Source: Psammoneis japonica (lineage: Eukaryota). From it: a stretch of 64,000 nt of DNA. Location: contig QPGO01000084.1 in the NCBI GenBank assembly GCA_008632985.1, positions 1 to 64,000 on the forward strand, read 5' to 3'. Below the pieces are notes generated by a model that made no database searches, was not told the origin of the DNA, and saw only the letters and a list, made by a program, of their open reading frames with translations. Both the position numbers and the translations under genes were made by a program. This document shows, piece by piece, positions 1,219 to 58,000 of this stretch (position 1 is the first letter of the stretch; the number at the start of each line of letters is the position of its first letter).

Positions 1219-1250
1219 CATCTTTTGCACAACTTTTCCAGCAAAAAAAC

Positions 1251-33629: not shown

Positions 33630-33950
33630 TTGACAGCGCACAAGAGCTGGACTTGGAACTTGACAAAACAACTCTGGAGTGACTTTCATGGAATGATTGT
33701 GGAGTTCTGTTGTGTGTTTGAGTCATCTGTTGTGATGCGCCCTTGCAGTTGAGCATCGATCTCATGGTTTGGCGTCTCATTCTCGTGGTTGGGTGCACAG
33801 GAACCTCTTCACATTGACAGTGCACGAGAGCTGGATGTGGAACTCAACAAAATGACCTGGAATGACTTTTGTGGAGCGGAACGATTGTGGAGTGCTGTTG
33901 TGCATTTGAATCATCTGTCAATGTGTCCTTGCAGTTGAGCGTCGATCTCG
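33630..33950 (+). repeat. Imperfect direct repeat, ~185-bp period
   Basis: gagctgga..tggaact..acaaaa...gattgtggagt.ctgttgtg..tttga.tcatctgt...ccttgcagttgagc.tcgatctc occurs twice. Confidence 0.75.
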
Positions 33951-34217
33951 CGGTGATGCGCGCTCCTGGTGCAACGTGAGACTCCTCATGTGGAAATCTG
34001 CAAATCTGGGGGGGGGGGGCGTCTTTGTGAGATTGTCAAAGGCGGTTTGATTGCCAGTGTGGCCAGATGAACAGGGATGAACTGACAGAAAAAGAACACA
34101 ATGTGCATCAAAGTGCAAGACATGCGGCCACGGGCATCGCTGCAAATTGTGATCGTGACACAGAATCTCTGCCCCAATGTGCAGGGCAGTCAACCAGAGC
34201 TGACACACTGAGTGATT

Positions 34218-36529: not shown

Positions 36530-37699
36530 GGCAGGCGTGAGTTGTTTGGAAGTGACAGCAAGAACGGCAAGAGACAGCAGACAGCAATGCACTTGATTTG
36601 ATTGTGTTGCGAGTTGCGTTTTATGACGTGGCGGAGAGGGCGAGTTTTACATTGCATGCAAGCGCAATGGAATCTCCAAAATTCTTCCCGGAATGGGCGA
36701 TTTTCAAGGGACATTTTTCTGATTTCAACATAATTTCTGGTCACGCCTCGCATTGCTTTTTGTCACACATTTTTTTAAAAAGGATGAAAAATGTTTTTTT
36801 TCGTTTTTTTATCAGTTGTGACGCAATCATGGAAAAAATGCCCACATCGAATTCTGCACCGTTAGCGAACTTTTATTGCTGAATGCACCGATGTGGCTGG
36901 AATTGATTTTTAGAAATTTGGAGTAGATTTCTGCGTGCTAAGTTGAAGTTCATTTTGTTGGACTCCTCTCCTGTCATCAAAGATGTTCAATGTCAATGTC
37001 AATCCTCTCATGTTGTTGTGTGAATGGTGTTGTGAACGAGAAACAAAAGTGGTGTGAATCATCATCACCTTGTCGGATGCTTCTTCTGCTGTTCACGAGT
37101 TCCCAGCCAACAACAACAAAAGCGACAAGAAAAAAAAAAAAGAGAATGAGCAAAATGCCATTTGCGTCGGGGAACAACAAGCCACACAAAAATCAAATGG
37201 GATGGTGTGCAATGTGGCTGATGCTGCTGCTTCCCAAGGATCACCAATCACTGGTTCGGCAACTCACCAGGAATGAACTGACGCTGTGTTTGGACCATTG
37301 TTTTTCCCTTCAAACTTCGACTCGGATCATTCTCCACCACGACGGGGAACGGGGCCATCCAATGTTGCTCACTGTGTCTCGTGTGAGGCTCAAATCCTGC
37401 CGCGCTCTTCTTCTGCAAAACACAGCGATGATGACCACAAAGTTGGTGTTGCGCTGTCCAAACTTGCCTTGGGGCTTTGTGCGAAGCAAGCAGCTGTGGG
37501 ATCGGGAGCACACGCCGCAGGTGTCAAGGAGGGTCCATGCTGGTGGATGTCAATGGGGTTGGAATGTTGGCAGAACCATCCAAGCAAGCTTTGGGACGAA
37601 TGTGGCAATGCGGAGGAATCCCCGACAATGCAGGCGCAGACAGCAAAGAAGACTTTCTGATCAAGTTTCTGACACTCATCAAGGATGGCACAGTGATCA

Positions 37700-38055
37700 T
37701 CATAGAAAATCTGTGGCACAGATTTGGGGTTCAGATTTCTCACAGATTTTCAAGGGGTCCGCAGAAACAGTTGCAGATTTTTAAAAAGCACAGGTTTTCA
37801 ATTGTTTGGCTAAAACTGGGGCCAGTTTTTTCCAAAATTCACCAAATCATGCGATCTTTGAAGAACCCTTCTGCAGACCCGGCGCGGTGAAAGCAGGCCC
37901 GGTGCAGTCCATGCACACCCTGCGCACATCATTTGTGCCACTGAGGGGGGAAGACAGATGGGGTCAGATTCCAGATTTTCCGTTCTAAAATCTCACAGAT
38001 TTCATTTGGCCCCTCAAATGATCTTGCAGATTTTCAAATCAACACAGATTTTCTG
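37700..38055 (+). repeat. Cluster of about ten CAGATT(T) motifs, possible subterminal repeats of a DNA transposon
   Basis: cacagattt, ttcagattt and gcagatttt repeated in two groups around a GC-rich core at ~37876-37910. Confidence 0.5.
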
Positions 38056-41000
38056 TGATGATCAGGGTGCATGAGTTTTGCTTGTCAGCCTCTGCTGGTG
38101 TCTTGTGCCTTGTGCACATGCCTCCCATGTGGCATTGGCGGCTCACAGTTTACACAGCCAGAAGTGAACAACAGAAGGTTCTGCCTGTGCAGCAACTGTG
38201 GTGTGGTTGTTGTTCGCTGCCACTCTCCATTGGCACGGCTGCAGCTGGAATGCAGAAAAAGATGTCTGGGGCTTTTCAGCTGCCCTTGGGCGGGCACACC
38301 ACTTGTCTCCACTCTGTGGGCATTTTTGCACTCTGAAAACAAGTGCATTTTTGTTTGACATCACGTCTGACAACAGCAAGAGCATCAGTGTGTGAGACGT
38401 CAACAAGGCTTTTGGAAAGCTCTGGCAAAGGTGCTGCCACAGAAGGGCAGAGAGCTGCGCTGCCTCTAGTTTTTTTTGTCAAATTATTTCAAACTTTTTG
38501 CTGTGGCCCTGTGCTCCTTTTTCTGCCTTGGGGTGTGCTTTGGAGTGGCGCGCGCTTTTGTCATTGTGCTTGCCCTTTTTCCAAAGCACTGCCTGGCCAT
38601 TTCTTTGTTCTGTTGTCAGGCCTCTGAAAGGTCTCTCCAGCACCTTGCTTGGCAAAGCATGTGTGCTCTTTTCTTGTTGGTAAAGGTCACAGACTTTTGA
38701 AAAAAAAAATTGGTTGTGCCTTTTTGTTTGGGAAGAGTTGGAGGAAAAAAACAAAGCAAAGCACTCAGCACAAATCAGCACGCACACCATGATCATCAGC
38801 CAAGCAGCAATGGCAGCCAGAGCATTTTTTGGCACATCATTTTTGCTGCATCTGTGGCCACAAAAGGAGCAGCAAAATCTGGGTGATTGGTCATGTGATT
38901 TTGCTTTGTGTCATCTTTGCTGCAACAACTGTGTGCTGCATCACTTTGACAACAATGCTTTTGTGCATCTGCGCCCCAAGTGACCAGCTGAGCATGTCTT
39001 GACAAAAGCTGTGTTGAAGCCCATGCTCCACAATGAGTTGCAAAATTTTCCATGCACTCTGCAAATTGTTGAGGCTGGGCTCCATTTCTCCTTCCCAGCT
39101 GTGCGCACAATCTTTGAATGCCTGCCTCACTTTTTTCAGCTCATTTGCTGCTGACTTGATGCCTGGTGCACCATTTCAGCAAGTGCAAGTGACTCACACC
39201 AACAAAGTCCCATGACCACAAAATGGCTTTAAACAACATAAAAGGGAACTGTGTTTTCCTTTTGCTGCCAACTTGCTTTGCCCCTCCCCCCACTGATGAG
39301 CCAAAGAGAGACTTTGCTCATCTTGTCATTGTCTCTGAGTGCTGTTCTCATTCCTCATTGTGCAAGCTCTAAGAAGCTGGGGCACTCATTGTGATTGTTG
39401 ACATTGCCAGTGAGAAAAACAGCAGGCAAATTTTGTTCTTCCTGGCAGCCAGCAACACATGTGAGATTCCAAAACTTCACAACTGCCCCCACTTGGTGCA
39501 AAGGGGGGTGGCAGCATTGTCAGCTTGGACAAACCAAAAGAGCATCAAGAGCCAAGCAGGTTGTCCACATCAAGACATTGTTGAGCATCAAATTTGATTT
39601 CGGTTGATCACAAAAAATGCCAGGCTTTTCAGATCTCACTTCATGTCACTCTTTGTTGTGCACCTGAAGTGGTGCAAGATGAACCATGGCCACAACAGCA
39701 ATGCAGCCTGGCCTTGCAACAGCAATGCTTGGGCCTTCTGTCCAAACCAAGCATGTCAGTCTCAGTGACATTGAGCTTCAAGCCATCATAAAAGCTCTTG
39801 AAATGAGGAAATGCAGGAACAAAAAGATTGGACAGCATCTCAAAAGAACAGGGAAAATCAAGTGTGTCAACATGACAGATCTTTGCATTTGTGCCTGTTT
39901 GGGTTGGTCATGAAAGAAGTGCCTTGGCTGGCAAGCAGCAACTCCAGCCAATCAAAATGATGCTTTCTTTTGGGGCTCTCAAACTTGGAACTGAGTGAAA
40001 AGTTGAGCCTGTGCATCAGCGGGGCAGAGTTGTGACCCATCTCACAATTTTTGGAGATTTTTTTCATGTGTTGCTTCCAGTCCAAGTTGGGGCTGTGTGT
40101 GACATTGGCCCTGCAGAATTTTGTGCACAAGCTCAGCAGCAAAATCACAAACAAGGCAACAAATAATGTGCAAATGATTGCCAATGGAAAAAGAGGCAAT
40201 TTTGCTGCTGTGAGCCTTTTCCTCCTCAACACTTGCTGTGCATCATTTTCATTTTACCTGGGCATGCTCTTCAGACATTAAAGAACATGCCCAGCCTGTT
40301 TTTGTTCTCACAAATGAAGAAAAAATGAAAAGCCTTTGGCTTTGCAAAACAGGGAGAGTGTGAATTTCATAAGATCACACATGGAAATGCATGTGCGCTG
40401 CACACAGAGCACACTCAAAAGCTTTCATGTCACAGCACAGCAGTGTGAGGTCCCTCACCCAGAGCTGGAGTGCATCTTTGTCCCAATCTTGACATTAACG
40501 GGTTAGTTTGTCACATGTGGTTTGGACACAACATGATGGTCTGCACACATGTTTTGCCAGAGCAAGTTGTGAATTTTTCAATGATGCTTCAATGGCATCA
40601 CTGAAGAGAGCAAATGGAGATCATCAGCTTGAGTTTTTTTTTAAAATGTGCAGTCAGCTGTGCTGCCTGTCACAAGTTCAAGTCACAGATTTTGCAGCAG
40701 GGCAGCAATTGCAAGAAGCCCTGGCACACAGCTCAGACACCACTGAAGCTGGCAACACCACCAAGAGCAGCCACAGCTCTACAAAAAATGGCCCAAAGAC
40801 ATGGCAGCAGACATTTTTAGACTGCAGTCATCTGTGCAGCCTGTCAGCCACCACACACACTTGTCAACAAAAACTGGGCAGCTGGACAATGCTGCCGGCT
40901 GAGCAAACAGCTGTTTCTTTGTGAAAGCTTCTGGGCTGGCTTTCTGCTGTCTCAATGAGTGTGTCTTGTGTCTCAAGCAGCAGAGCAGCACATGCCTGCT

Positions 41001-42699
41001 TGGCTGAGCAGCCAGCTGCTGCACCACTCTTTTTTGCAACAAACTTTGCAGCAAAAAACACTCCAAGGCTCTCTGGCCCAGCTTTGGTTGGAAAGAAGAG
41101 CTGACAACACATGTGAAAGGAACAGCAGACAGAGGTTCTGCATGTGGTTGAAAAATTTGGTTCAAAAATTGTTGCCTGTTTCCATGACTTGCAAAGTGGC
41201 ACATTTTCAACTTGTGCCCAGCTCTCACAGGATGGCTCCTTGGCTGTGCATGTCTGCTTTGGGGGTCTCTCATCACACCATGTGTGCTTGCTTGCACACC
41301 ACCAGTGTGGGTGATGGTCAGGTGTGCTGTTGCCCTTTTGTGCACACATGGTGCTGAGCCAAAAAAGTGCAACAACATGCCACCAACACACTCCAGCTCC
41401 AGGTGTGATCTTGCACTGCTGAGCTGCAAAACTGATGTTTTTATTGCCCATTTCTGACAATGTCAGTTGGCCTGTTGTGCTCTTTGATGTCTGAAGAATG
41501 TGGCCAAGGGCAAGAAAGAAACTGCACACGTCAAAAATGGGGGGGGCATGATCACAAAGCTGCCCCTTTTTCTGCAGGTGATGATCAATTTTTTCATCAT
41601 CCAACACAGCATTGCAAGTCAAAGCGCAACATGTCCTGAAAAGTCTCTTGAGAGCAGAGGGCCTTGGCTGGTGGTCTTTTCCATGATTGTCATTTGGCTG
41701 GCCATCAAAAGGGGTGTGACTCACACCGCTGTCAGAGACAGACAGGCAGCTGCAAGCATGCTTTGTTCTGGGCCATGTGGTGTCACAGAGAGTTGTTGTC
41801 AAGAGGTCATGCAGCGCTTCTTTCCTTTGCCCCTGTGTTGTGAGTTGAAAACGCTTGATGTTGGAAGAAGGAAGATTTTCCAATTTGAAAGTTACAAGGA
41901 CAAGTGGCACTGATCAAAAAGTGCAGCAGCATTGCTTTTGTTTTTGTTTTGTTGGTTGGGGAGAACTGTCCAGTGTGCCCGCCCATGAGAAGTTTGTGAG
42001 CAATGTCATCCAGCAGCACAGGGGAACAGCAGATGTGAAGCAGGGGCGGAACTGAGTCATGTCGGCAGTTGGGGCTGTGCTTTGGTGGAGCAGCGAGCAA
42101 GTTGGTCAGCCAAGGGCATGGCAATCTCAAAGCTGAGGCTCTGCAGGCCCCAGCAAGGTGGTGGAGTGGCAGTGTGGTGAGGAGTGAGACCAAAGCAGGC
42201 GGCAGAGGCAGCTCACCTTGCAGCCAGTGGTGGCTCTGCAGGTCTGCAGGGAAGATTGCAGAAGACAACATGCCAACAGCTGGGCACAGATGCAGACAGC
42301 ATGAGCAGCTGGGTGTTAAAAACAAGACTTGTTGCCCACTGAGGAGGTGGATGGAGTGGTGGGATTTGAAGCGGCACAACACAGGTTGCAGTGATCAATC
42401 TCCGCAGGCACCCATGGTGCACACTTTTGTTCTTCATTCATGTTGCCCATCTTCAACCTGTGTGAGTGCTGTTTGAAGCCATTTGACCATCATGTTGGAT
42501 GCTGGCCAATTGCTTTGCTCACTCTTTTCCAGCCAGCAGGAGCAGCAGCCAGCCCTGGCTGCATCAGCTGCAGTGTCAGCAGATCAGTGTGTGGAGAGCA
42601 CCTGTCAGCTGGCACATTGCTTTGTGACAGTTTTCTCTTTTGGGGTTGACTGCTCTCAAAATGACCAAATTTACAAGTGGTCTTTGTGCACAAAATTGC

Positions 42700-43900
42700 A
42701 CCCAATGACTTTCAAAGGCCATGGGACATGAGTTCCTTCATGCAAATGCATTGGACAGGTTGAGTTTGGAGTTGCTCCAGTCATTTTTTGGTTGGAAAAT
42801 GATTGACTCCTGGCCACAGTTGATTGGCTGTTTTTTATTTTGAGGTCATTGATGTTGAATGTTAAACAACAAACAAATGCCCATTGTTTTGTCATGTGAT
42901 TGTTCACCTGAATCTGAACATGATGCACAAACTGTTGTCCACTGAGAATGATCTGCATGATCTGGTTTCTTCTTGGTGGGTTTTAGAGCTTGTGCTTTTT
43001 TGTTGGCATGCATGAAACAACTCCTCAACTCTCTTGATGATGCATGCCCAGATTTCTGTCGTGTGGTTGAAACTTGATGTTTGCAAGAATGACAATCCTC
43101 GTGCGTGCTGCTGTTTTGCATGGTCATCTGCAGCAGGAACCTGAGAACCTTCTTGGAGCCCTCTTGCACACCTGAAATGACAAAGGAGCTCTCACTCTCA
43201 ATGCCAATGACGTGCCCTTGTTTGTTTTCCTGCCATCAAACTTCTTCCTCAGATGAGTGCCCTTTCTTGTTTTGTCTCTGGACAGAACCACACAAACCCA
43301 ATTGTCTTTGCAGACAAAGTTGTTGACAACCAGGCACACTGAGTGCCCTCCTTTGATTTTTTGTGAGTGCTGCCAGCAGAAAATGAAGATGCACACTGGT
43401 TGATTTGTGCCATGCCAGCCATTGCCAGCTCTGCTTTGTTCAGGTCTTGCAACACTTTGGGGCTTTTTCCCTTGCCAATCCCAAACACATTTCACTTTTT
43501 GGTGGCTTGTTTGAATCTTTCTTCACTTGGTTCAACCCTTTGGAAGATGAGCTGCAGCAACCAAGAGCTTCTTCATTCCCTTTCTTTGTTGCATGGGATT
43601 TTGGAGAAAGAGAAGTGAGCTGGACAGGAAATGAAATCTTCTGACTCTTGACAATGAGAAGTGCAGTGGCAGGATGAGCTGTGTGAGAGCAGCAACAACA
43701 TTTTCCAAGTTCACTTTAAAAATGTTTTCAGATCTTTCAGTGTTGCACTTCATTCTTTCTCGTGGTCAATCATCAGGTGGTTGCACACCAAGCACACTCA
43801 AGCAAAGTGTTTGTTGCCTTCCTTGTGGGCAAGATGGTCTGATGTGGCTTTTGAGCTTCTGTCTGCTGCTTCAGCAATTCTGGTGTCAGTGACAAGCATG
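42700..43900 (-). mobile_element. Possible Helitron-associated (DUF6570-like) coding relic
   Basis: Fragments VCLVCNH, IGK..PKVLQDLNKAELAM, SFSAG..HK/KIKGGH and VCVVL resemble the region upstream of Helitron Rep. Heavily decayed. Confidence 0.3.
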
Positions 43901-45089
43901 GAGACAGCCAGGACAAGCATGTTGTTGTCAGTTTTTGAGCACTCATCTTTCAAGAAGATTGTGTTGTGTCATGTCAAGAGCAAATGATCAAAGGTGCAGT
44001 GCAAGAAATGTGGAGAGGTTGGATGCAAATTTGATTGACGTGCACACATTCATTGGAGATGACACAAAACCAACTTTGGCTGGACAGTGAGGGAAAGTCA
44101 AAAAATGTCATTTTTCATTTTGTCCAATCAAATTCTTGCTGTCTCACTTTGTTTCTGGTTGTTTGTTGACAAACATCAATGCCCAGCAATGCACAAGACT
44201 CTTGACATCACTCTGACATCATCAGTGCATTTCTCCAGCAAGGGGTTTTCTGAAATTGTGTCGTTGTTGACACTTGTCAATGACTGGCTCAAATGCCCAC
44301 AAAACATTTTCAAAAATTTGAAAAACAAACCAGTGTGAAAGGCAAAGACATCATGAGGAACAAGAGCCGTGTGCTTTCATTTTGCTCTGTCAGACTGTCT
44401 CACAACTTTTTTTTTGTCACCAACATCATGATTTTTGCAGTGGGGGTGCATTCAGTTCTCGTTTCCTTGCCACCATCACTGCTCTTGACAAAGAAGGGAA
44501 CAAGAACAAGACTGCCACACAAAGAAACCAAGCCCCCTGAGAAGAAAACAGAAGGAAAGGCAGACTCCATGTCCGAGAAAAAGAAGCCTTCTCTTTGCTT
44601 TCAAATGGCTGGCACTTCAGTGGATGACAAGAGTCAGTCAGCACTCATCTGGTTGTGATGAATGGAAACATGGCCAAGCCACATTTTTTTCAACTTGTTC
44701 ATCATTTCATCAAGAACTGGGTGACAGATCACAAGGACAACAAGTGGTGCAAGAAAAAGCACCTTGTTGATGATGATGAAACATGCGATGTTCTTCATTC
44801 TCCACTCATCATGCCGGATCATCATTTGTGAACTGCAGGTGCCATTGTCAAGTGGACAAAGTGGATGTTGTGCAGCCAATGTGCAGTTGCACAAGCAAGG
44901 GGTGGTTGTCACGTGCAGTTTTTGCAGGCTGTGCGCACAAAATTTGAATTGATTTTGGCACCGTGCCAAGCACGATGGTGGTTTTTGTTGTCTTCCAGTG
45001 GGCAAGACATTGATGGTCTCTGTGGGTGACAGGTTGGTGTGCTGTCCGGATGGGTGGGGATTGATTGACTGAGCAGGGGTTCTTCAGTG

Positions 45090-46355
45090 TCTGTGAGAAG
45101 GGACAGACCTGCACCATCTTCCCACTGGGGTCATCTGGAGCTGATCTGAGATGAGGGAATGCTGGATCCCCTGAGGCAACAGTGAGCCACCCAAGCTGTG
45201 GTGATGCTCATTCTCACATTGACACAACCACATGCTTCAGAGTGTGGCTTTTGTCACTTGTTTGACAGCTTTGACGCTGTCTTGCACAGCATCACCTTGG
45301 CTTCCTTGCCAAGTGGTCCATTGCATGACACAACAAAGGGCATGAAATGATGGTGCTGATCAAGACAGGGCTTGAGGCACTTGTTCTTTTTCTCACATTT
45401 GTTTCTTGCTGGGACTTCTTCTGGTGTTTTGGACAGGTGTGACTTCGCATCCGTGTCAGGGATTCAAACATCCATCACCATGTCTGTCATTTTCCATTCC
45501 AAAATCTCACGCCAAGAAGGTCTCCATGATTGCTGTCACTGGACTTGTTGGAGTTGGCATTTCCTGGGGAACTGTCAGACAAGATGCTTGGGCTTCCCGA
45601 GATGGCACAACCAGTGGGGTTAATTTGAGGTTCGTTGCATGCGCAGGAAGGTTTGCAAGCCTTGCCAATTTGGTCACCCAGGTTGTCATGTGCTTCGTCA
45701 TGTCATGAGATGACTGGGCCACCTTTCTTGCACTTGAGGGTGTGGTCAACAGAGAATTTGCATTCACATCCATCACAGCACTCCGGGAGGTCTGGCAGAG
45801 TGCTGCCACACTGCAAGAAGAGCGCATCACGGAACTCTTGGCATGAGAGTTCTGTGCCGCTCAGCATCGAAGGGCATGCTGACAGCCGTGTGCTGGTCTT
45901 GGTGCTGCACTTGACAGCTCTGGCCTGAATGTTGGGCAGGGCATCCTGAGGATCATTCTGAGGATCTCCCCATGTGCTTTGACTTTTTGATTGGCTGCTT
46001 CTTGTTTCACTTTGCATGTGGTGTCCACGTTTGTCAATCACGTGGGAGCACGTAAGAGTGCTTGCTTCACAGTTGTGAGCCATGGGCTCTGTTGGACGAG
46101 TGATGGGCAGTCCCAAAAATTTGATTGGGAGGATGGACACGGCCAGTCTCGGGTCATTTTTTGGCAAGCAGGGTCTCACAGGGTCTCACCGATCAGCGCC
46201 GGCAGAAAATTGTGCTGCATCGCATGCTCCATGTCGGCAAAGAATTTGCCACAGTCCTTTGCTGCACGCTGGACACATTGCCGCTGGTGTTGTGGGGACT
46301 TCTGTAGACCGGCGCAGGCGGTCTGAGGGTGGTGAATCGCGATCTTGGCGAGTCC
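45090..46355 (-). mobile_element. 5'-truncated CRE-like (restriction-like endonuclease) non-LTR retrotransposon, copy 1
   Basis: HPQTACAGLQKS, LPIKFLGL, EFRDAL...CDGC..FSVDHTLKCKKGG, DV*IPDTDAKS, KKNKCLKPCL...FMPFVVS..GKEAK, PQWEDGAGL. Confidence 0.85.
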
Positions 46356-46723
46356 CTGTCAAGTTGGAGAGGCGCACGAAGATGACGATGAGACAAAGTC
46401 TTGGTTTGCCGCAGATCTCTACGAGACTGACATGTAACATCCACTTTTCTAACACGTGCAACAATGTCATGACTGTCAGTTTGATTGTTTTCTTTTATTT
46501 TTATAGTAAAATTTTAAAAGACAACGACACACAGCCGTTCAAACAAGAACTGTGTAGAATCACCGATGTTACCTCGCCACTTTTTAGGCTGTCAACGGGA
46601 AAGCACCGACCTTCTCTTTCTGCCCGCTCAGAGTACGGTACCGAAAGTACGCGGCACTCATAACATCTCAGGAATAAAAACACGACGTGCTTTTAGTTGA
46701 GCATTACGTCGTGCGTACTGCAC

Positions 46724-49127
46724 ATGGTGCTGCGACACCGTCTTATCCTTGTCATCCACGTTGTGGTGACGGTAGTAGCAAGACAAAGTCCTTGCCATCC
46801 TAAAACATTAAGGAACAAGATGGCTTGTGCTTTAAAGAGATGGCTTGTGCTTTAAAGTAGAAATACCAACAGGCTTTTGTTCGGCCTGTAGAATTGGCGA
46901 GTTCGAGCAGAATGGCGACTTGACGGACTGCGTCCGTGCGTCAGGACTCGAGATTCGTGATGTAAATGATCAGTTTGTACCAAACCCTCAGTGTCTTGAT
47001 GCTCTCGCTACCTATGTGTCAATCAATGCCTGTGACGAGCTCCGAGCTGCAGCTCTCAATAATTACCTTTCGGATGTCGACAAAGAGAACGCCAGAATGA
47101 CTCTCGACTTCTTTGCATCTGCCATATGTGAATCAGCATGCGATTGCGTTCCTCTCCATGGTGCGGACCGAGACAAGCCTTCCTACAGCCTGGAGCGTGG
47201 AAACTGCCAGGCCCACGTCTTTTACGACATCTGCAATGTCTTGCCCCATGTCGAGCTTATCTATCGTGAGAGAACTCCCCACAATGTAAGCCTTCCTCAA
47301 GCCTGTCCCTTGCTTACAGACTGGTTCAACGGCCTTGAAAGTGAGTGGCATGGTAGAAACGTTAGCGTCGGAGATGATGTTGCATATTTTCTCGAGAGAC
47401 TCATCGATGCCACCGGGGTTACTCGGGACTTGAGCTTCTGGAAAACTTGCTTTGATTTTGAGCATGCCCAGGGTTTTACCAAGGACGAAGTCACGTCGTA
47501 TCCAGGAGGGGCTCCGGCAATTCCTACACTAGTTCCATCCGTGGAGAGCATTACTAGATTGATGTTGGTCAATGCAGACACCAACACCGACATTGGCGTT
47601 TTGAATGATGGCGACACTATTGTCATTGGCGTCACTTAGCAACTCATGGCCCAATGTGAATGTACGTGCCGATGTGACACCGTCGTTACCTCCTAATGAA
47701 TGCAACAGACTGGTTGGGAGTGTTGTCTTCACAGTTAACGGAACAGTTTTCAGGACCGAGAATGCTTGCCCTATGCATTGGCGGGAAATTCTGGCCCAGA
47801 TTACACATCTTGGAGTCCCGTTCAAGGTGTCTACAAGATCAAGGCTACACCGTATTCAGGTTCATCTGGGACGGGAAGTGTAGGCAATTCCTTGAGTGTG
47901 ACCATTACCATTATCAAGGAGACGAATCAGGCCCGAGATCCATCTTCTATATCTGAGGGACTCTGGGTTGAGATCGATGCCAACGCTCAAATTGACAAAC
48001 GCCATGAAGCGTGCTTTGTGATGGTTGACAACATCGTTGTTGGAAGGAAGGCGTATCTGGTCGGTGGTAGGGGCCTCAAGGATCTCGATATTTTCGATCC
48101 AGTAACACGCTCCTGGACCACAGGCAAGCGACCGCCAATTGAAATTCACCACATGCATTGTGTCGAAGCGCGAGGATTGCTTTGGGTCATGAGTGCGTGG
48201 ACGGGATCCTTCCCCAGAGAGAAATATGCCGCAAGTGTCTACGTATATGATCCAGCCGCCGATAGTTGGAACGAGAGGACAGCAATGCCGGTGGAGAGGA
48301 GGCGCAGCTGCAGTTGCCGTGTCAGAAGACCAAGCAAAAATATACGTGGCACAAGGAAATAGCGGAGGACATGAAGTACCTGGTGACGGCGTAGTTCCCG
48401 TACAGAGAGGATATCTTGACGAATACGACATAAGTCATGATTCTTGGACGGAAATATCTAGCAATGCTCCAAATCCTCGTGATCATACTTGTAAGTGCAC
48501 GCAGTGTGGAGGAGCAACAGCTCCACAACTTCTTCAACGACATCTTACCCTTCCTTCATACTTTGTTCGCCTTTCTCCAAAAAAAAAAAAACGATAGGCG
48601 GAGGAATGATCAAGGGAAAACTTTGTGTGGCTTCTGGTCAAGATGGTAGTGTTCCTGGCTGGCCAGTGGTGGCCCAAACCGATTGCTACAATTTCAAAAC
48701 TAAAGAATGGGAAGTCAAAGCCAGCATCCCACAACCGCGCTCCGGGGCATCTTGTGGAACAACCTGCGATGGCAAACTAATTGTAGCTGGAGGAGAAGGA
48801 AGTGGCAAAGCATGGACCGACGTCTCTATATTTGACGGTGAGAGTTGGACAGCGCTTGCCGAACTAAATGTGGGTCGACACGGAAGCGGGCTAGCTGTGG
48901 ACTGTGTCTGCAACCAGATTATTATTGCGAGCGGGTAAGTCACGATGTTTTCATTCACACGACATATGCACCATTCTATGCTCAACGGCATCAAGCTTAC
49001 AATGGTACCTATTCATTTGGCTTGCTCTGCAATCTTCAGATCTGCTGGTCAGGGTGGAGGTCCTGAAGTGCAAAGCGTGGAAGTTTTCTTTCCCGATGGT
49101 GTGCAAGAAGAATGTGTGGTAAAGTAG
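46724..49127 (+). pseudogene. Secreted protein: Cys-rich domain + NADTN domain + Kelch repeats; frameshifted, introns ~48491-48596 and ~48935-49039
   Basis: Signal peptide; LMLVNADTN...PYALAG...ATPYSG; RHEACFVMV, YLVGGRG, EIHH, GRHGSGLAV. Frame breaks near 46840, 47637, 47766 and 48300. Confidence 0.75.
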
Positions 49128-49199
49128 CCTGATACAGAAGAATATCCTCCCTAAGGCTCGCCTGAGGTAGAGTCTGTAGGGGAGCGAGGTCATTGGGGA

Positions 49200-50589
49200 G
49201 AGGTGGTTAACTTCACCATCATCCCATTCCACGTCACGACGTTACCTGACGGGATTGTAGTTTTGCCCACGGCGCGTCGACAGAGGGAAAATAGTTTTGC
49301 AGCGAGGGTCATTATGAAGCCTGGTACACCGACTCTGGTGATCATGGCCTTGGAGAGAACCATGCCCGGTATTTGTACGGTACACATATGAGAGCAATGT
49401 CAATATCTTCTGCGCGCCGCTGTCGATAGATTTAGCAATTGGAACATTTTGATTCTTGGTGGCGTAGCGAGTGCAGCAAACAGATCTGGAGAAGAAGTGA
49501 AAACAATCAGGTCGCATGGTCACAACGACGTTTTAGAGTTCACTGTTGGCACCCGCGAGATTCGCAGGGACAGGCGAGGAAACATGACCTATCAGCCTTC
49601 CAGATGAAAGCTTTTTGCGGGGGGCACGTCATGCCAAAAGTTGCAACGATTCCTGAACTCTGGAACCCTGTACATGGTTTGCGAGCTTAAGCAGGAGCAG
49701 CAATACTTCCCATGAGCAAAACGGAGGCCGAGCAAGAGAACTTAGAGGATGCTTGGTGGTATCCTCACGTTTCTGAAGCAGAGATTCTTGTCATGATTGC
49801 GGACGAATATGACGACGAGATTTATGTCGTATGGGAGTGCAAGGCGATGGATTGATTGAAAAGGTGGGAACCAGACCTTTCAAGGGCCACAAGCTGGCTC
49901 CTTCCATTATGTACGACGTGGATAAAGTCACAGTGATGGATGCCGAAGATGGAAGGATATGGTCGTGGAATATTACCGATGCCTCCAATTCTACTTACGC
50001 GCCGAAAACGCCTCTATTAGCGCTGTCATGATGATGCTACCAGATGGTCGAGTCATGATCAATGGTGGTTCCGGAGTTTGGGACGGCCAAGATATAGGTT
50101 CTAACGAATATGCCTTTCATCGCAATGTGAAATATGTTGAAATATGGGATCGTGTTGCGAACACCGTGGTTAAGGGTCCAGAGCAAGATATACCGCGCCT
50201 TCACCATTCTTCTGGGCTCATTATGCCCGACGGGTCGTTTTTTTCGGCAGGTCCGGCCGGCACCCAGGAGTTCTTACCTCACCAAATGGCCAGGTCTAAA
50301 TCTTACGTCTGACATGAGTATTTCAATTACTGGTAGCGGTGATCCAATGGGTGTTGAGAAGGTAACGGCCACCAATCCTGGTTCCATGACGCATGCCCGT
50401 AATGGCGACGCTCGGTGGCTCTATCTTGCATCTTGCCTCCATGCTGCAAAAGGAACGGCGATCACCATTTCCTTGTCAGATCAGCACATAGCAGCACCTG
50501 GTGTATGGTACCTCAATGTCATCGATAAGCAAGGAGTGCCATCCCTTGCAAGTCTCTTCATGTTGCGCAAGCCAGAACAAGAAAGTTAA
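49200..50589 (+). pseudogene. Galactose/glyoxal oxidase-like (AA5) relic with DUF1929-type C-terminus
   Basis: TLPDG, PELWNP, WYPH, MLPDGRVMINGG, RLHHS..IMPDG..FSAG, GSMTH, APGVWYL..GVPS; many deletions. Confidence 0.75.
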
Positions 50590-50744
50590 ACTGCGTTCGG
50601 TAGGCCCTGGCCCTAACAGAGAGCTTCAATCAGTGGCAAAAATGCGCAGAAAATAGACCAAATAGTCAATCCCACTCGAATTTTGGAGAATCAAAAAAAA
50701 TAGCCAACTTCCAATTTGAACTAATAGGGCTAGAGGGAGGGGCC

Positions 50745-50812
50745 TCTACTCTACTGTAGCTAGAAGTACGGTAGCTAGCTACTGTTTGGATATAGTAGAG
50801 AGTAGCTACTGG
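50745..50812. repeat. Low-complexity TAG/CTA/AG tract
   Basis: ctctactctactgtagctagaagtacggtagctagctactg...agtagagagtagctactgg. Confidence 0.6.
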
Positions 50813-51278
50813 AAAGCCAACGCAACGCAAAACATCTCATGGCAGCGCACAACCAAAGAACGAAGGGAGCAGGCAGGACGGGCAGGAGACGTCCTCTACT
50901 CTGTGATGAAGTCTGAGTAATTATTCATCCATGTATAAGTCAAATGACATTTTGAAAGATTTCTCCACTTCCGATTGGTTCGTTGTGACGCGATAGTTGA
51001 AGCAAGAAGTCTCAAAGCGCGACCTGCCTGTTGCAAAAGCGGCTTGCCGAAGACATCACAATGTTGTGGCAAAGACACAGCAAAACAAGACGAGCTACAT
51101 TGAACATCATTAATCGTTAGAAAAGCCAGCGATTTGCTTTCAGCAATCACAGCTCTATCAGAACCAAATAATCAAATCTGTCCATTAGCCTTCATCAATG
51201 GTAGAGTCTGCCAGCACTGTGACAAGCCAATTTACAAATCATCCAATATCATCAGCTCGTGGATCTTTAGTCATCAGC

Positions 51279-51845
51279 ATGACAAATACGAACTGCCTAT
51301 TGCTGTTACTAGCTTTGCGGTGTTTGCCTCTAACAGTTGGCTACAAATACCAGTACTATCCTCCTCACTGCACTGTAAGGTTCTATGAGGGAAGCCAGTG
51401 CGTCGAGTGGAATGCAATGGGAGAAAGCACGCAAAGAGTGTATGGAGAGCACTATGCTTTATTGTGTGGCAAGGATACCAAGTGTGTGTCGGAAGAAACT
51501 GTGGAGTGTTGTATCCAGGCCGACGCATTGCGTGACTCGGATGATATTCCCGGGGAATCCTTGCTAATGCCGGTACCCGAAAATGCCAGGAAAGCGCATG
51601 TCAGCTGCGAAATGGGACCGCGAAAGTGCCAACAAGCAAGCAAGAGCAACTCATCATCAAGTAGGCTTCAGCAGACACTTCCAGTTTTTTTACCGGTCAC
51701 CGTTGCTATTGTTGCCTTTTTGGCATTCGTCCTGGGATCTTGGTTGATGAGGAAACTACAGCAAAGGGTCGGCGATGACAGTGGAGATACGGTCAAGATG
51801 AACGAAGACGATTTGTCTAGGGATACCTCTGAAGAAAATATTTAA
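51279..51845 (+). CDS. Small type-I membrane protein of unknown function
   Basis: Signal peptide, Cys-rich ectodomain, TM helix (VTVAIVAFLAFVLGSWLM), acidic tail. Confidence 0.7.
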   Translation: MTNTNCLLLLLALRCLPLTVGYKYQYYPPHCTVRFYEGSQCVEWNAMGESTQRVYGEHYALLCGKDTKCVSEETVECCIQADALRDSDDIPGESLLMPVPENARKAHVSCEMGPRKCQQASKSNSSSSRLQQTLPVFLPVTVAIVAFLAFVLGSWLMRKLQQRVGDDSGDTVKMNEDDLSRDTSEENI

Positions 51846-52631
51846 AAGCTCGGTGGCTTTTGCTGACGACGATTTTGCCTCGTTAATACGATAATTCGTA
51901 GCAACATATATCTCTATTAAGCTTCGAACGTCACCGAGAGAATTGTTTTGAGTCTAGCCCTAGAGAGAGCTGGCTTGCCTCATCCCAAAATGCCAGATCG
52001 TCCCCCATTCCTTAACTTTTTCTTCGGACATCTCTTCCTTCGAATCACATTGTCAGATCAGTCCTCGTTTTCTTAAATTCAATTTGCCTTGTATCGCTAC
52101 GAGTTCCAATTCACTGAGTATGTATGTCTTCGCATCCAGGTACTATAGTGTTTTCACCCTCTGCTCTTTTGTAGAAGAACCTACCAGCACCGGCAGCTGG
52201 TACTAGAGTAGGCTGCATTTCACACGAGTGCACCCCGGAATACAGTACTGGCCATACGAATCGTCACTCACTTTCGGAGAGTACATCATGGCTCCGTTGG
52301 TACATGCCACAAGTTTTCCTTCCAGTAAGACTTGGACTCTCTTGGAGCACTGTAAATCAAGTGGAGACAGAGAGTTTGAGGAACCGATGTGATGCTAGTT
52401 TGCAACTTTTTCATAAAACGCCCGTAATAAACAGTTGCGCTTGATCAAACGGGGAATAATATGCATCTCTTGTTTATATAAAACTTATTCCTCTAAAACA
52501 TATCATTGTACTAAATCGCTTGACATGACTATTGACCCAGCAAAATTGCCATCTAACAACACTGAAGAAAAAATGGTTGTAGCTGTTGTTCTCGAATGAT
52601 GACAGGACTAGCTCACTCCCATTATATGCTT

Positions 52632-53720
52632 TTAAGCATGACGGAGCTGCTGGTTGTTTGCAGCGTGCTCGTCATCGACAAGCTCCCGAGATCCGTGGGC
52701 GTATAGATCATCGTTCATGTTGTCGGCCTGGGCCCTCATGTCCTTGCACATCTTGTCAAAGCTCGAGGCGGAAATGAGGTGGCACTTGCGGTCCACCTGC
52801 CAGGTAATGGGAGTAAAGGGAGAGCAGATTTCATTGTTACGGGCGGTACCGGTAGTGGAGCCAGTGTACTTGGCAATGTCGGTTCCCATTTCACCATCGA
52901 CAATCATACCGCGGAAGAGGTCTGGGTAGTAGTAGTCTTCGTCGTTGACAACGGTAAATACTTGGGACTGGACACCAATCTGCTGAGCAGTGTTGGTGAT
53001 GACGTCGTCACGGCAGAAAACACCGTCATAAAAGGGAGTCTGGTACTGGAAGGGGGTACCGCAGGCACCGGCAGCAGAGTGTGGCCAGTGAACTTCGTAG
53101 GTTTGGCCAACCATCATTCCGATGCAGTGCTGCCAGTTGAAGGGAGTGTTGAACTTGGGGTCGTTCTCGTCGTAGTATCTGCACTGGAATCCCTGACGGC
53201 CTTCGTGGAAATCGAGGGGACCGGTACCAATCTCGTCAAACTCGCCAGCGGAGTAGTGCTCGGCCCCAAGATGCCAGTGAACATTGACAGGGCACAGGCC
53301 GGCTTCGAAGTAGGAGGTAGTGATGGGTTCGGCGTCGGTCTCGCGGTCGCCATTGTATCCCTTCGTGACGTTGGCCCCGGATTGTTCTCCGGTTTGGGTC
53401 ATCTCGTCAATGATACAGGCAACATTGGGAAGATCGGGACGCTTGCCCTGGCACGGGTTGGGTCCTTGAACTGTAGAGACCTCAACCTCCTTGTTCTTGC
53501 TCTTCTCGTTGTCGCGGTCGACAGCGAGGTAGATGGTGGAGATGAGGAGACCGATGACACATGCTCCCAAAAATGCCATGAGAAGCTTCATGCGCTTGAG
53601 AGCAACGTTGGGCATGACAGTGACGCCGGAAGAAGCGCGGCTGCTGGCAGCGGTGGCATCATCTTGGGGAGTCTTATCGACGGGAGCTCCGGATTCAATT
53701 TCCGTGGTTTCCTTGCACAT
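52632..53720 (-). CDS. Delta-class carbonic anhydrase, membrane-anchored
   Basis: CPVNVHWHLGAEH, TYEVHWPHSAAG, YQTPFYDGVFC, GSTTG and WQVDRKCH motifs; N-terminal TM helix; strong codon bias. Confidence 0.93.
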   Translation of the reverse strand: MCKETTEIESGAPVDKTPQDDATAASSRASSGVTVMPNVALKRMKLLMAFLGACVIGLLISTIYLAVDRDNEKSKNKEVEVSTVQGPNPCQGKRPDLPNVACIIDEMTQTGEQSGANVTKGYNGDRETDAEPITTSYFEAGLCPVNVHWHLGAEHYSAGEFDEIGTGPLDFHEGRQGFQCRYYDENDPKFNTPFNWQHCIGMMVGQTYEVHWPHSAAGACGTPFQYQTPFYDGVFCRDDVITNTAQQIGVQSQVFTVVNDEDYYYPDLFRGMIVDGEMGTDIAKYTGSTTGTARNNEICSPFTPITWQVDRKCHLISASSFDKMCKDMRAQADNMNDDLYAHGSRELVDDEHAANNQQLRHA

Positions 53721-53897
53721 GTTGTTGCTCTTTACAAAGAGTTGAAACAAAAAATTGTGAGAAGTGCGATCGGTTTTTCTGCTGTCGCTGTGTTGGCTGT
53801 GGTGAGAAAGGTGACACGTGACAAAAAGGATTCGCTTGAAGATTGAATGCCGTGCCACATCAGTGTGAACGCACCAATCAGAATGGACGATCGCTCA

Positions 53898-54255
53898 ACG
53901 TCAACAAACAATATGGTATCAAAAATGAAGCATGACGTTTCGTCGAATGATTTATTTAACATATGAACGTCATAATTACGTCTTCGACGCTGTAATATTT
54001 AACGAAAATTCGTGACGTGTCTGGAATGTGACGTTGATCGCTGGTGTGAACTTTGTACCGTAGGCGCGAATACTGTACAATATCCGTCCAGCCAGCTGCT
54101 TCTCGATGATGCAGTGGGCGAAGCTGCCAGATGCGACGCAATGATCACGTCTGAATGCTTAAGTGCAGTTGCGTCGAAATGACGTTCGATACGAATCATG
54201 TTAAGTGCATCTTCCGTCACAAATCCGACACGTAAGATCGACGCAAACCTGACGT
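53898..54255. promoter_or_regulatory. Cluster of seven TGACGT/ACGTCA (CCRE-like) motifs upstream of delta-CA
   Basis: Motifs at 53898, 53933, 53967, 54013, 54029, 54180 and 54250. Confidence 0.7.
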
Positions 54256-54329
54256 TGGCTGCTTCCGCTCCCCCCCCCCCCCGCACAAATGATGCACGGT
54301 CGTGGAGCTGCTTCTCTCAAGTAAAAAAA

Positions 54330-57300: not shown

Positions 57301-58000
57301 CTGAAAGCCAAGGCATTGTTGCATGGTGACAAAAAGCATGAAAGTGGCTCATCTCCAGAAGGACAACTGTCACATTCTTTGCACACAGAATTCTGCACAG
57401 ACAAACTGGGTGGGCAAGACTCTGTCTGGCATTGTCAACCACATCAACAACAATGACATGAAAACATCTTGTGCAGAGCAAAAATGACACATTGCCTCCA
57501 CAACACCATGAACAACATCACACCTCATTTTTTCCTCAGTGTCAGCAGAACAAATCATTTTTGTGTGTGGTGGCAGGTGGTGTTTTCCATGATTGGAGGA
57601 GTCCAAAGTTCCCAACTCCTTTTTTGTGTGACACATCCAAACAATTTTTACACAGACAAACAGGCTTGCCGTTCTTGCACTGAAATTGCTGTGAGTTTGA
57701 GTCCCTGTGTGACTGTGGTCACATTCGGCACTGCACAGGTCCTGTGCAGATGCTTTGCGCAAAGCGTGCCACACATGTGCAATGGCCAGTTGTGCCCCAC
57801 ATCTTGGTTGCACGGAACTCCTGCAGCCTGTTGCAGGTCTCACAGAACCAGGAGCTATATTTTCCACTGTGTGCTTCTGTGGGATCAGCATCATCATGGA
57901 CAGCCTCCTGCACAGATGCAGGAAAGCCGCACCAACAATGGCGGGATGCAGCAGGCATTCCCTTTCACTCGTCCCTGTGAAGCATCGCGATTCGCTGATG
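54330..58000. other. TpA-depleted domain IV
   Basis: TA is nearly absent (survivors mostly TTTA/TTAA/TTAG) and the core is CpG-poor. Normal genes lie on both sides. Confidence 0.9.
55400..56110 (-). mobile_element. CRE-like non-LTR retrotransposon 3' fragment, copy 2 (more decayed)
   Basis: TGAWLSAHPLMLNGTELSCQEF, CKPSCVPDKPLINP, MSVAMAQVAHCCLGGS...QISSRHPQWED; homologous to 45.1-45.9 kb. Confidence 0.8.

Follow-up and report, generated by a model that had tools for sequence, protein, structure and literature searches.

TpA erasure and CpG decay in a dead R2-like retroelement tail suggest a DNA-level mutator in a probable diatom

Introduction

In repeat-induced point mutation (RIP), described in Neurospora and other fungi, C is changed to T, mainly turning CpA into TpA, and the DNA becomes AT-rich. 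Among the enzymes that edit A, the TadA/ADAT tRNA deaminases have as their natural target an A preceded by U, and ADARs prefer a G after the edited A. The closest described counterpart of the pattern analyzed here comes from Bigelowiella natans, for which Mettrop et al. 2026 (bioRxiv 10.64898/2026.01.13.699255) describe a hypermutation specific to TpA in the integrated DNA of giant viruses and virophages. In the mutation-accumulation lines reported there, 230 of 231 hypermutations in integrated viral DNA were A>G or T>C, all of those falling at TpA, and reverse-transcriptase and transposase domains were enriched among TpA-poor genes. This preprint alone surfaced in a full-text literature search, which returned no description of TpA erasure in diatoms.

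Here we describe a locus that has lost nearly all of its TA dinucleotides. It lies in a window of 64,000 nucleotides, the whole stretch of DNA that was analyzed. We put the probability at roughly 80% that the locus records TA erasure by a DNA-level mutator acting after insertion, together with CpG decay, in the dead tail of a retroelement.

Results

The element and its copies

The minus strand at 45095-46355 belongs to a multicopy R2-like non-LTR retroelement with a restriction-like endonuclease, of which it holds a dead tail truncated at the 5' end. The tail represents the C-terminal 42% of the open reading frame (ORF), spread over three frames by two frameshifts and interrupted by stops of a single type, TGA; with frameshifts and stops in it, the ORF is no longer under selection. 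The element, its pieces and a second copy in the window are as follows.

45095..46355, minus strand: 5'-truncated dead copy of an R2-like non-LTR retroelement, matched in three pieces by hmmsearch with a 13-seed profile
46176..46358, minus strand: first frame piece with HPQTACAGLQKSP, where the family columns 41, 46 and 53 (Y, Y and L) read CAC, TGC and CCA
45487..46185, minus strand: second frame piece with the conserved EFRD motif and a CCHC knuckle (45730-45777); in-frame TGA at 45703-45705 in place of a family Arg
45095..45490, minus strand: third frame piece, the endonuclease part with KSHL, EEVPAR, KNKCL, NGPLG and KPHSEACGCV, placed by minus-strand frames and profile match
55431..56211, minus strand: second copy of the same family (copy B), 5'-truncated, more degraded, ~70% identical in nucleotides and located in another TA-poor domain

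The 13-seed profile matched the three pieces with E-values of 7.7e-18, 1.7e-43 and 4.6e-40. Together they span positions 26-457 of the 459 in that profile. With a full-length family profile the match was restricted to positions 555-976 of 988, and the same profile found no reverse transcriptase (RT) part of the element anywhere in the window. At the 5' end, homology becomes convincing at 46352-46355. None of the element's five frame pieces matched a family in Pfam. In the second piece, the knuckle columns 232, 235, 243 and 247 (C, C, H, C) are all retained. The third piece carries TGA stops at 45464-45466, 45254-45256 and 45131-45133; its first four motifs all lie in the stop-to-stop frame 45254..45463 and KPHSEACGCV in 45131..45253, both on the minus strand. 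The summed contig depth was 500-2300 across 45003-46338, compared to 58 in the unique flank.

Family placement

Intact relatives are ~1000-1130 residues long and comprise a central RT, an R2-like C-terminal thumb/linker, a CCHC knuckle and a restriction-like endonuclease. RVT_1 was present in six of ten long relatives, while the window copy lacks the RT owing to its truncation. The best PDB matches of the relatives' RT profile were R2 proteins (E 3.4e-14). A structure model of the relative P0004 had a pLDDT of 91.1, and in a Foldseek search of the PDB with the C-terminal 446-residue model the top seven matches were all R2, with E-values from 1.6e-8 to 1.6e-6, a probability of 1.00 and ~440 aligned columns. 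As modeled, the C-terminal 446 residues of the relative fold like the thumb/linker, zinc knuckle and endonuclease of R2. A profile search for a sequence match to the R2 endonuclease gave none, the RT alone being matched.

The family thus combines the two defining parts of the R2/CRE/NeSL group, a non-LTR reverse transcriptase, seen in the relatives only, and a C-terminal zinc knuckle with a restriction-like endonuclease. It shares with this group an RT nearest to R2, a conserved CX2CX7HX3C knuckle and the 5' truncation of both window copies; it differs from R2 in an endonuclease without a profile-level sequence match and in that nothing points to site-specific insertion. A preliminary description of the locus had called the element a CRE-like retroelement. 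The RT nearest to R2 and the R2-like C-terminal fold carry this label as far as the R2/CRE-type group, whose members are non-LTR elements that encode a restriction-like endonuclease. The CRE clade proper (CRE1, CRE2, SLACS and CZAR), marked by its place in RT phylogeny and by insertion into spliced-leader genes, would be a narrower assignment. In the available portion of PMC3491386, "CRE-like" denotes a recombinase, different from the retroelement family discussed here, and the available portion of PMC5029228 does not place the family.

Codon evidence for the direction of change

The preliminary description had quoted peptides from the element, named Tyr, Leu or Val as the family residues at the changed positions, and explained each change as a single TA->CA or TA->TG step. 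All of these peptides (HPQTACAGLQKSP, KSHL, EEVPAR, KNKCL, NGPLG and KPHSEACGCV) occur in minus-strand stop-to-stop frames, and the claimed codons are, in the same order, CAC, TGC, CCA; CAC; CCA; TGC; CCA; and CAC, GCA, TGT. These residues agree with the family profile of 13 seed proteins, to which the best 150 of 1581 relatives were aligned.

Column 41: Y in 12 of 32, plurality only
Column 46: Y in 24 of 32
Column 53: L in 29 of 33
Column 343: Y in 27 of 52
Column 352: L in 37 of 45
Column 363: Y in 32 of 39
Column 384: L in 13 of 34, plurality only
Column 408: Y in 27 of 32
Column 411: V in 20 of 32
Column 414: Y in 13 of 32 (F in 12)

Across the nine columns where Tyr is the commonest residue, the window has no Tyr, showing five Cys, three His and one Leu; column 221 in the second piece (Y in 114 of 150) reads TGT. 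Among 200 well-conserved columns, Tyr was retained at 0 of 5, compared to 131 of 195 for the other residues (Fisher p=0.0044). At codon position 2, T>C was found in 7 of the 8 codons in which A follows and in none of the 39 others (p=1.3e-7), the ancestral codons being taken from the protein-family consensus rather than from an unmutated DNA copy, with A assumed as the third base of Leu and Val. Copy B showed the same dependence (4 of 4 if the next base is A, 1 of 20 otherwise). The Leu-to-Pro changes at conserved columns are all CCA (3/3) and the Val-to-Ala changes all GCA (4/4). Scoring by dinucleotide context therefore bears out the proposed direction.

On the coding strand, nine of the 14 TA-type changes at conserved columns are TA>CA and five are TA>TG. 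The balance of TG and CA in 300-bp bins had a z variance of 1.49 and 0.90 in TA-poor domains and of 1.31 and 1.02 in normal DNA, no greater imbalance in the former than in the latter, and a strand-patch analysis found no long one-strand runs of change. The changes run from TA to CA or TG on both strands. The loss exponents estimated from surviving TA sites, by the base after A, were 2.19 for T, 1.84 for C, 1.17 for G and 0.32 for A, which points to a mutator that prefers a pyrimidine after A. A by-eye search for a flanking-base rule that separates CA from TG outcomes showed that C-TA-C had yielded both (columns 41 and 46).

The copy has decayed in ordinary ways as well. Out of 69 changed columns, 14 are TA-type and 15 CpG-type, counts that are upper bounds because TA and CpG routes were given priority where several ancestral codons were possible; the other 40 comprise 11 other transitions, 13 transversions and 16 multi-step replacements. 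A few changes fall outside strict TpA: CGG stands at two conserved Trp of this copy, and CGC at two conserved Tyr of copy B.

Direct comparison of the two copies revealed 19 pairs of CA-versus-TG double differences, with five in the next class, a contrast in which ancestral TA and CG are not separable; in at least one such case, the pair 45796/45797 compared with sister copies, the difference goes back to CCG as the ancestral triplet. Of the 40 differences from sister-copy contigs with the best support, only one, at 45736, clearly restores a TA, which is compatible with copies mutated independently as well as with copies multiplied after mutation. These repeat contigs are ~120-220 bases long and do not phase individual copies.

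One could suppose that composition or codon choice simply keeps TA low in this genome's members of the family and that the differences represent ordinary divergence, since sister-copy contigs at >=85% identity are mostly TA-less as well. We find this scarcely credible. Tyr, which has only TAY codons, is replaced at eight of nine Tyr columns by residues one TA-step away, the Leu-to-Pro and Val-to-Ala changes use only codons ending in CA, the ORF is broken and free of selection, and unrelated sequence of the same block is equally TA-deficient.

CpG decay as a separate component

The element contains 33 CG dinucleotides, compared to 85.2 expected from base composition, and conserved Arg is retained at 5 of 18 columns. 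The family Arg columns 256 (R in 105 of 145) and 334 (R in 35 of 57) read TGA in the window, and sister-copy contigs carry the base that restores CGA at 45705 (15 contigs) and at 45133 (20 contigs). The further suggestion that separate CpG hits had turned CGA into TGA stops is thereby confirmed. Per 200 bp, the last ~400 bp of the element near the border hold 14 and 8 CG, compared to 1-5 deeper inside. The CpG component is distinct from the TA component and accounts for the CGA-to-TGA stops.

The TA-poor domain and its border

The element forms the right-hand end of a long TA-poor block and adjoins DNA of normal composition.

31700..46400, no strand: TA-poor, CA/TG-rich and CpG-poor domain with the element at its right-hand end (TA 59 versus 978.7 expected; CG 307 versus 856.5 expected)
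46356..46419, no strand: junction zone of 64 bp, with 0 TA by position and, by eye, 10 CA+TG and 4 CG
46420..54322, no strand: neighboring normal-TA DNA with host genes identified by Pfam matches (TA 343 versus 528.9 expected, counted over 46401-54329)
start at ~46836, plus strand: galactose-oxidase-like Kelch gene (Pfam match)
52635-53894, minus strand: delta carbonic anhydrase (Pfam), with its best named relatives in Corethron, Seminavis and Thalassiosira

A homology search with a host ORF of 539 residues returned four unnamed matches. Within the element, 3 TA were counted where 71.0 are expected from base composition. Towards the border, the counts per 200 bp are 0, 0, 0, 0, 1, 0, 1 and 1 up to 46399, followed by 11, 11, 9, 6 and 8. 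The first TA beyond the element lies at 46420, 65 bp outside the 5' junction, with normal density thereafter, in line with the earlier statement that normal TA resumes within ~100 bp of the element's 5' end. The contig depth places the end of the repeat within the 46339-46505 bin. A stretch as long as the junction zone would hold ~2.6 TA at the 41 per kb seen in normal regions. As this zone has no excess of CA and TG and has kept its CpGs, any spill-over of mutation reaches 64 bp at most. The preliminary description had further taken the 5' truncation to mark the domain border: the TA-poor domain does end at the element's 5' end, while the truncation need not be the cause.

The block at 31.7-46.4 kb has a TA observed/expected ratio of 0.01-0.15, compared to 0.5-0.8 in neighboring genes. 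It is one of five such blocks in the window (TA 0.01-0.15, CA+TG 1.3-2.1), between which the ratios are 0.4-0.8 and ~1.1-1.3, respectively. Its 14.7 kb consist of heterogeneous degraded repeat DNA that includes a protein-kinase pseudogene with a TA ratio of ~0.1. Only seven of its 89 long stop-to-stop frames had any Pfam match at E<=0.01, and two kinase frames alone exceeded the cut-off. The flank 3' of the element (43500-45095) is as free of TA as the element itself and near single copy, with a depth of ~69. The left border of the domain also falls at a sequence break, where an XPG-like gene fragment breaks off at position 47 of the 89 in its Pfam profile. Elsewhere in the window, a tandem 473-bp host repeat (21838-23226) with units 89-93% identical has 114 TA versus 176.6 expected (observed/expected 0.65), and TA-type differences make up 13 of the 40 transitions between its copies, against a rough chance estimate of ~10. 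As this repeat keeps normal TA, duplication alone is no trigger for TA erasure.

Assemblies made from nanopore reads alone are known to carry systematic miscalls where motifs are modified, and a modification at TpA in repeats could make the sequencer read A as G, which would render the TA deficit an artefact. The three sequencing runs found all come from one sample, possibly the assembly's own, and therefore do not confirm the base calls independently. We nevertheless regard this explanation as very improbable. Exact contigs of 31-letter words, at a word depth of ~58-71, show 0 differences from the window over most of the stretch, a result that error-prone raw reads would not yield and that argues against a base-calling artefact. 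Moreover, each TA would require a consistent miscall on one strand only, and miscalls create neither frameshifts nor CpG decay nor the 29 transversions and multi-step replacements.

A border at the edge of an insert would be expected if the element had been edited before insertion, by ADAR-like A to I editing of its RNA or by a deaminase acting on first-strand cDNA, and the TA-free state indeed ends <=65 bp from its 5' end. The preference of ADARs for U before the edited A, as stated in the B. natans preprint (bioRxiv 10.64898/2026.01.13.699255), fits this scenario as well. Editing of the sense RNA would, on the other hand, yield TA>TG only, yet nine of the 14 changes are TA>CA and three of the eight changed Tyr columns became His. 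The near-single-copy DNA on the 3' side is just as free of TA, the kinase pseudogene in the same block shares the deficit, and the changes in B. natans arise in resident DNA. Editing before insertion is thus improbable here.

A different origin of the border would follow if the mutator tracked a chromatin domain, such as heterochromatin or methylated DNA, whose boundary was set by the promoter of the neighboring gene and coincided with the element's end by chance. The entire block is affected, even where it is by now almost single-copy, and the tandem host repeat keeps its TA despite being duplicated, both of which speak for such a domain. Against it, TA changes in a step of <=65 bp without a gradient, with 11 TA in the first 200 bp outside, whereas CpG loss, by which methylation should be readable, declines gradually along the final ~400 bp of the element; the two marks do not have a common boundary. 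The left border likewise lies at a break in sequence. Overall, we consider a domain-following mutator unlikely, though it retains real weight.

Discussion

Proposed mechanism

In the reading that we favor, a mutator acting on DNA would have converted nearly every TpA of the element to CpA or TpG (A:T to G:C) on both strands, close to saturation, and this erasure would have halted at the junction with unique DNA. We infer that the changes postdate insertion. In a second process, ordinary decay of methylated CpG to TpG or CpA would have produced the CGA-to-TGA stops, remaining incomplete and fading towards the border. The chemistry of the mutator may be adenine deamination by a TadA/ADAT-like enzyme, by analogy with what has been put forward for B. 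natans.

A more far-reaching idea, to which we give somewhat less than even odds, is that diatoms carry a transposon-directed defense that deaminates adenine in DNA, is related to TadA/ADAT, recognizes the inserted element by small RNA or by copy pairing, and stops at the junction. With a defense that recognizes the element, editing would stop within tens of bases of the junction, independently of CpG methylation and more sharply. If this is true, the presence of the same TpA rule in a chlorarachniophyte would make it an old and widespread eukaryotic counterpart of fungal RIP, with the opposite chemical direction.

Significance

The locus illustrates how a conserved protein family can reveal the direction of mutation without an unmutated copy: the direction is readable because Tyr codons all contain TA and their replacements sit one TA-step away. 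It lends support to the view that a second algal lineage, one of major ecological weight, has a targeted A:T-to-G:C mutator. Transposon erasure has been so thorough that most of the block matches no protein family, with consequences for the annotation of repeats and the dating of transposons, and since TGA is nearly the sole stop codon left in such blocks, gene prediction is affected too. The sharp TA step (~65 bases) next to a gradual loss of CpG suggests a targeting distinct from DNA methylation and narrows the search for a mechanism. A natural editor of DNA adenine with a TAY preference might also have practical interest.

Comparison with known mutators

Like the process at this locus, RIP is a dinucleotide-specific transition mutator that ruins repeats and transposons and leaves sharply bounded blocks of odd composition. 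Its direction is the reverse of that found here, where TpA is lost and CpA and TpG are gained. RIP would mutate a 913-bp tandem repeat of 93% identity; the host repeat in the window (913 bp, 92.9% identity) is untouched and has no excess of TA-type differences (13/40 transitions). With TpA lost rather than gained and a long duplication left unmutated at a TA ratio of 0.65, RIP was rejected.

ADAR hyper-editing likewise proceeds from A to G, via inosine, with U preferred before A, according to the B. natans preprint (bioRxiv 10.64898/2026.01.13.699255). ADAR acts on RNA, whereas both DNA strands carry changes here, and the base preferred after A is a pyrimidine (loss exponents T 2.19 and C 1.84, compared to G 1.17 and A 0.32). 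Hyper-editing of this type, fixed by reverse transcription, should leave A to G changes confined to the transcribed strand, and it was rejected with nine of 14 changes being T to C on the coding strand.

The likeness is closest to the hypermutation of B. natans. In the preprint (bioRxiv 10.64898/2026.01.13.699255), that process makes only A:T to G:C changes at TpA, with TpG or CpA as the product depending on the strand, and is restricted to foreign or repeat DNA adjoining normal genes. Judged from sequence, the same change at TpA appears here in the conversion of Tyr to Cys or His at eight of nine columns, with few non-TpA exceptions, and mobile DNA appears as the target in the two R2-like copies that lie in TA-poor blocks. 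The differences are that the host, judging by the best named relatives of its delta carbonic anhydrase, is probably a diatom, from another eukaryotic supergroup; that the loss is near saturation, with observed/expected ratios of 0.01-0.15 compared to a Rho of 0.45 for the viral region of B. natans; and that the target consists of retroelement debris, not of a viral insert, with CpG decay alongside and a sequence pattern in place of a measured rate. In its sequence pattern, the process at this locus matches the TpA hypermutation of B. natans, in a saturated form and in a probable diatom.

TA-poor blocks and other features of the window

A dinucleotide table compiled per kb over the whole window revealed five TA-poor blocks with sharp edges.

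TA-poor blocks and their composition (observed/expected)
Block 1: about 1-10370
Block 2: 14100-16830
Block 3: 31700-46400, with retroelement copy A at its right end
Block 4: 54330-58000
Block 5: 63250 to the window end
Within blocks: TA 0.00-0.16; CA+TG 1.3-2.1; CpG mostly low
Between blocks: TA 0.4-0.8; CA+TG about 1.1-1.3; CpG near 1

Almost the only stop codon remaining in these blocks is TGA, and they therefore carry many spurious open frames of 110-350 codons. Of 89 frames of at least 110 codons, 82 had no Pfam match at E ≤ 0.01, a pitfall for gene prediction. Further features of the window are as follows.

1953-2820: tandem array of ~115 bp units, 88-91% identical, in a TA-poor, very CpG-poor stretch
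7201-7809, plus strand: frame in block 1 with a weak NDC10_II match (E = 7.5e-6, slightly under the Pfam cut-off)
21838-23226: tandem host repeat of three 473-bp units, 89-93% identical, in a gene with ~170-residue repeated modules
30757-32045, plus strand: XPG/FEN1-like nuclease gene fragment
34221-35087, minus strand: protein-kinase pseudogene in block 3, split over two frames (Pkinase, E = 1.5e-9 and 6.5e-15)
45095-46355, minus strand: copy A, an R2-like retroelement in three frame pieces
52635-53894, minus strand: intact delta-class carbonic anhydrase gene (PF10563, E = 9.8e-49)
55431-56211, minus strand: copy B, of the same family as copy A

The NDC10_II domain is found in Crypton-type DNA transposons; if the match is real, a DNA transposon has been TA-erased as well. 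The kinase pseudogene part of block 3 has TA of about 0.1, yet CpG observed/expected is 0.7-0.8, above the rest of the block. The carbonic anhydrase gene, whose best named relatives come from the diatoms Corethron, Seminavis and Thalassiosira, lies only about 400 bp away from the next TA-poor block.

Two copies of an R2-like retroelement

The copy A region (45090-46355, 1266 bases) contains 3 TA and 33 CG, against 71.0 and 85.2 expected from its base composition. A search of 1.84 billion representatives with the middle of the three frame pieces (45490-46185, its one TGA entered as X) retrieved 1581 proteins at E ≤ 0.001, 275 of them at E ≤ 1e-10; proteins of the diatom Attheya fall in one cluster of close relatives. 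The long relatives span ~840-1130 residues, with a central RVT_1 match in six of ten tested, mostly slightly under the Pfam cut-off. Searched against the PDB, a profile of nine long relatives matched best to R2 retrotransposon proteins, with the match confined to the RT (E = 3.4e-14 to 6.4e-12). We also predicted the structure of a 446-residue relative comprising the C-terminal region alone (mean pLDDT 91.1), for which the top seven Foldseek matches were all R2 structures (~440 columns aligned, E = 1.6e-8 to 1.6e-6), followed by weak matches to PD-(D/E)xK cap-snatching endonucleases. Together, the R2 matches of the RT profile and of the C-terminal model identify the family as a non-LTR retroelement, named here to the level of the R2/CRE/NeSL group, with a restriction-like endonuclease, a CCHC knuckle and a thumb/linker.

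Copy A was matched in three frames (E = 7.7e-18, 1.7e-43 and 4.6e-40) by a C-terminal profile built from 13 seeds, covering positions 26-457 of 459. The full-length profile (988 positions) matched it at positions 555-976 only, matched the more decayed copy B at about 55.4-56.2 kb at positions 696-974, and found no RT or N-terminal part in the 64 kb. Both copies are 5'-truncated, as is usual for non-LTR elements of this type. Summed contig depth in a same-sample sequencing run (all runs being from one sample) is 500-2300 over 45003-46338, versus 58 in the unique flank; the element is therefore multicopy in the host genome.

Direction of the TA changes

Copy A and the best 150 of the 1581 relatives were aligned to the seed profile and the window codon was read for each column. 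Ancestral states were taken from the protein consensus, and the counts leave out the columns in which frames overlap at the two joints. The strict set comprised 200 columns with at least 20 relatives and a consensus of at least 50%. A preliminary description had quoted peptides from a CRE-like element in which TA would have become CA or TG; all of them were found in the minus-strand frames, with the codons it gave read off in the profile alignment.

Tyr is the commonest residue in nine columns, at which copy A has no Tyr, five Cys (TGY), three His (CAC) and one Leu. Among the strict columns, Tyr was kept in 0 of 5, versus 131 of 195 for other residues (Fisher p = 0.0044). The sharpest contrast came from conserved columns for Leu, Val, Ile, Met and Phe, where the change of the second-position T depended on the third base.

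Second-position T>C, split by third base
Copy A: 7/8 with A (three Leu to CCA, four Val to GCA); 0/39 with C, G or T; Fisher p = 1.3e-7
Copy B: 4/4 with A; 1/20 with C, G or T; Fisher p = 4.7e-4

Second-position A had changed to G in 3/5 cases after T, 1/10 after C, 1/14 after A and 0/19 after G; the remaining two of the five Tyr had lost the T instead. Because the relatives span many organisms and TAY codons are the only ones for Tyr, these codons indicate a direction from TA to CA or TG, as first proposed, and not the reverse. Both products occur on the coding strand, intermixed along copy A. Changes that are neither TA-type nor CpG-type make up 40 of the 69 changed columns.

Changed strict columns (n = 69; the figures for TA and CpG are maxima, those routes being favoured where several ancestral codons are possible)
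TA>CA: 9
TA>TG: 5
CpG-type: 15
Other transitions: 11
Transversions: 13
More than one step: 16

In a few cases, change from A:T to G:C was also seen outside TpA: two nearly invariant Trp columns of the family, at 46281-46283 (32/33) and 45886-45888 (105/128) of copy A, both read CGG on the minus strand, a T to C change before G that created new CpGs. In copy B, CGC (Arg) stands at two Tyr columns, 221 and 408, that are strongly conserved in the family. As both TA bases are altered there, A to G or T to C change may have continued at CpA/TpG after the first mutation.

CpG decay and the borders of block 3

Conserved Arg was kept in 5 of 18 columns of copy A, the replacements being Cys, His, Gln, Trp or TGA. 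The stop codon TGA stands at Arg columns 256 and 334, and sister-copy contigs carry the CGA-restoring base at 45705 (15 contigs) and 45133 (20 contigs), which lends direct support to the CGA to TGA stops suggested earlier. CpG loss is uneven: the 5'-most 400 bp of copy A hold 14 and 8 CG per 200 bp, as outside, and the deeper bins 1-5. TA is nearly absent throughout.

Homology of copy A is convincing from 46352-46355. A weak local alignment extends it to 46376-46397, where the nearly invariant Trp of the family (28/30) is unmatched. By contig depth, the repeat ends in bin 46339-46505 (mean 112, between 668 and 58). The first TA beyond the element lies at 46420, within the ~100 bp previously estimated, and is followed straightaway by normal counts of 11, 11, 9, 6 and 8 per 200 bp. 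The intervening 64 bases contain no TA, versus about 2.6 expected at 41 per kb, and their CA+TG and CpG content, read by eye, is ordinary, which limits mutation spill-over to about 65 bp at most. The sharp TA step, set against the gradually fading CpG loss, speaks against a TA mutator that simply tracks methylation.

The left border also falls at a sequence break, in the XPG/FEN1-like fragment. Its XPG_N-like start lies near 31100, and its XPG_I match (31566-31706) reaches no further than position 47 of the 89 in the profile. The final two TAs before the block are at 31682 and 31697, and TA disappears at ~31700, where the XPG_I match stops. The frame continues past this point by chance, in stop-poor DNA.

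Flanking bases and a repeat control

TAs surviving in the blocks (n = 122) differ in context from those in normal DNA (n = 1304; chi-square p = 1e-26). Survival is highest for TTAA (ratio 0.47) and lowest for ATAC, ATAT, ATAG and GTAC (0-0.03). A two-strand additive model fits, with loss exponents of 2.19, 1.84, 1.17 and 0.32 for T, C, G and A after the target A. This TAY preference is unlike that of ADARs, which prefer G after the target A, and is reminiscent of the tRNA substrate of TadA, in which the context is U-A-C.

For a mutator set off by repeats, the tandem host repeat offers a useful negative control. Its TA content is normal and its differences (913 bp at 92.9% identity) show no TA-type excess; duplication by itself is therefore not the trigger of TA loss.

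Timing of the changes and comparison with Bigelowiella natans

The changes in copy A most likely represent DNA-level damage after insertion, since both strands are affected, with no one-strand patches at the 300-bp scale in the TA-poor blocks, and since the nearly single-copy DNA 3' of the element and the kinase pseudogene are TA-poor too. The sister-copy contigs are also mostly TA-less. Among the 40 best-supported sister-copy differences (a further 121 lie beyond these), the sisters kept CG in 14 and the reverse held in 4; two were adjacent CA/TG swaps and only one was a clear TA restoration. The retroelement copies may thus have been duplicated after mutation.

The host is probably a diatom and not B. 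natans, given the diatom relatives of the carbonic anhydrase. The host genes of the window are also long frames without interruption; genes of B. natans are rich in introns. A full-text literature search found no description of a TpA-loss process in diatoms. TpA hypermutation is already in print for one unrelated alga, B. natans, in a 2026 preprint (bioRxiv 10.64898/2026.01.13.699255). To this, copy A adds clean codon-level proof of the mutation direction in an R2-like element, the location of the TA step at the insertion junction, and distinct spatial profiles for TA erasure and CpG decay.

That preprint records 231 mutations in two viral regions integrated in the DNA of mutation-accumulation lines; 230 were A>G or T>C, and these lay without exception at TpA, with a rate of about 6e-7 per site per generation. 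It also describes 124 clusters in the genome that are poor in TpA, rich in CpA+TpG and enriched for domains of RT and transposase, and puts forward an ADAT2-like enzyme that would deaminate adenine (bioRxiv 10.64898/2026.01.13.699255). The signature reported for B. natans is the one found in the window, TA to CA or TG.
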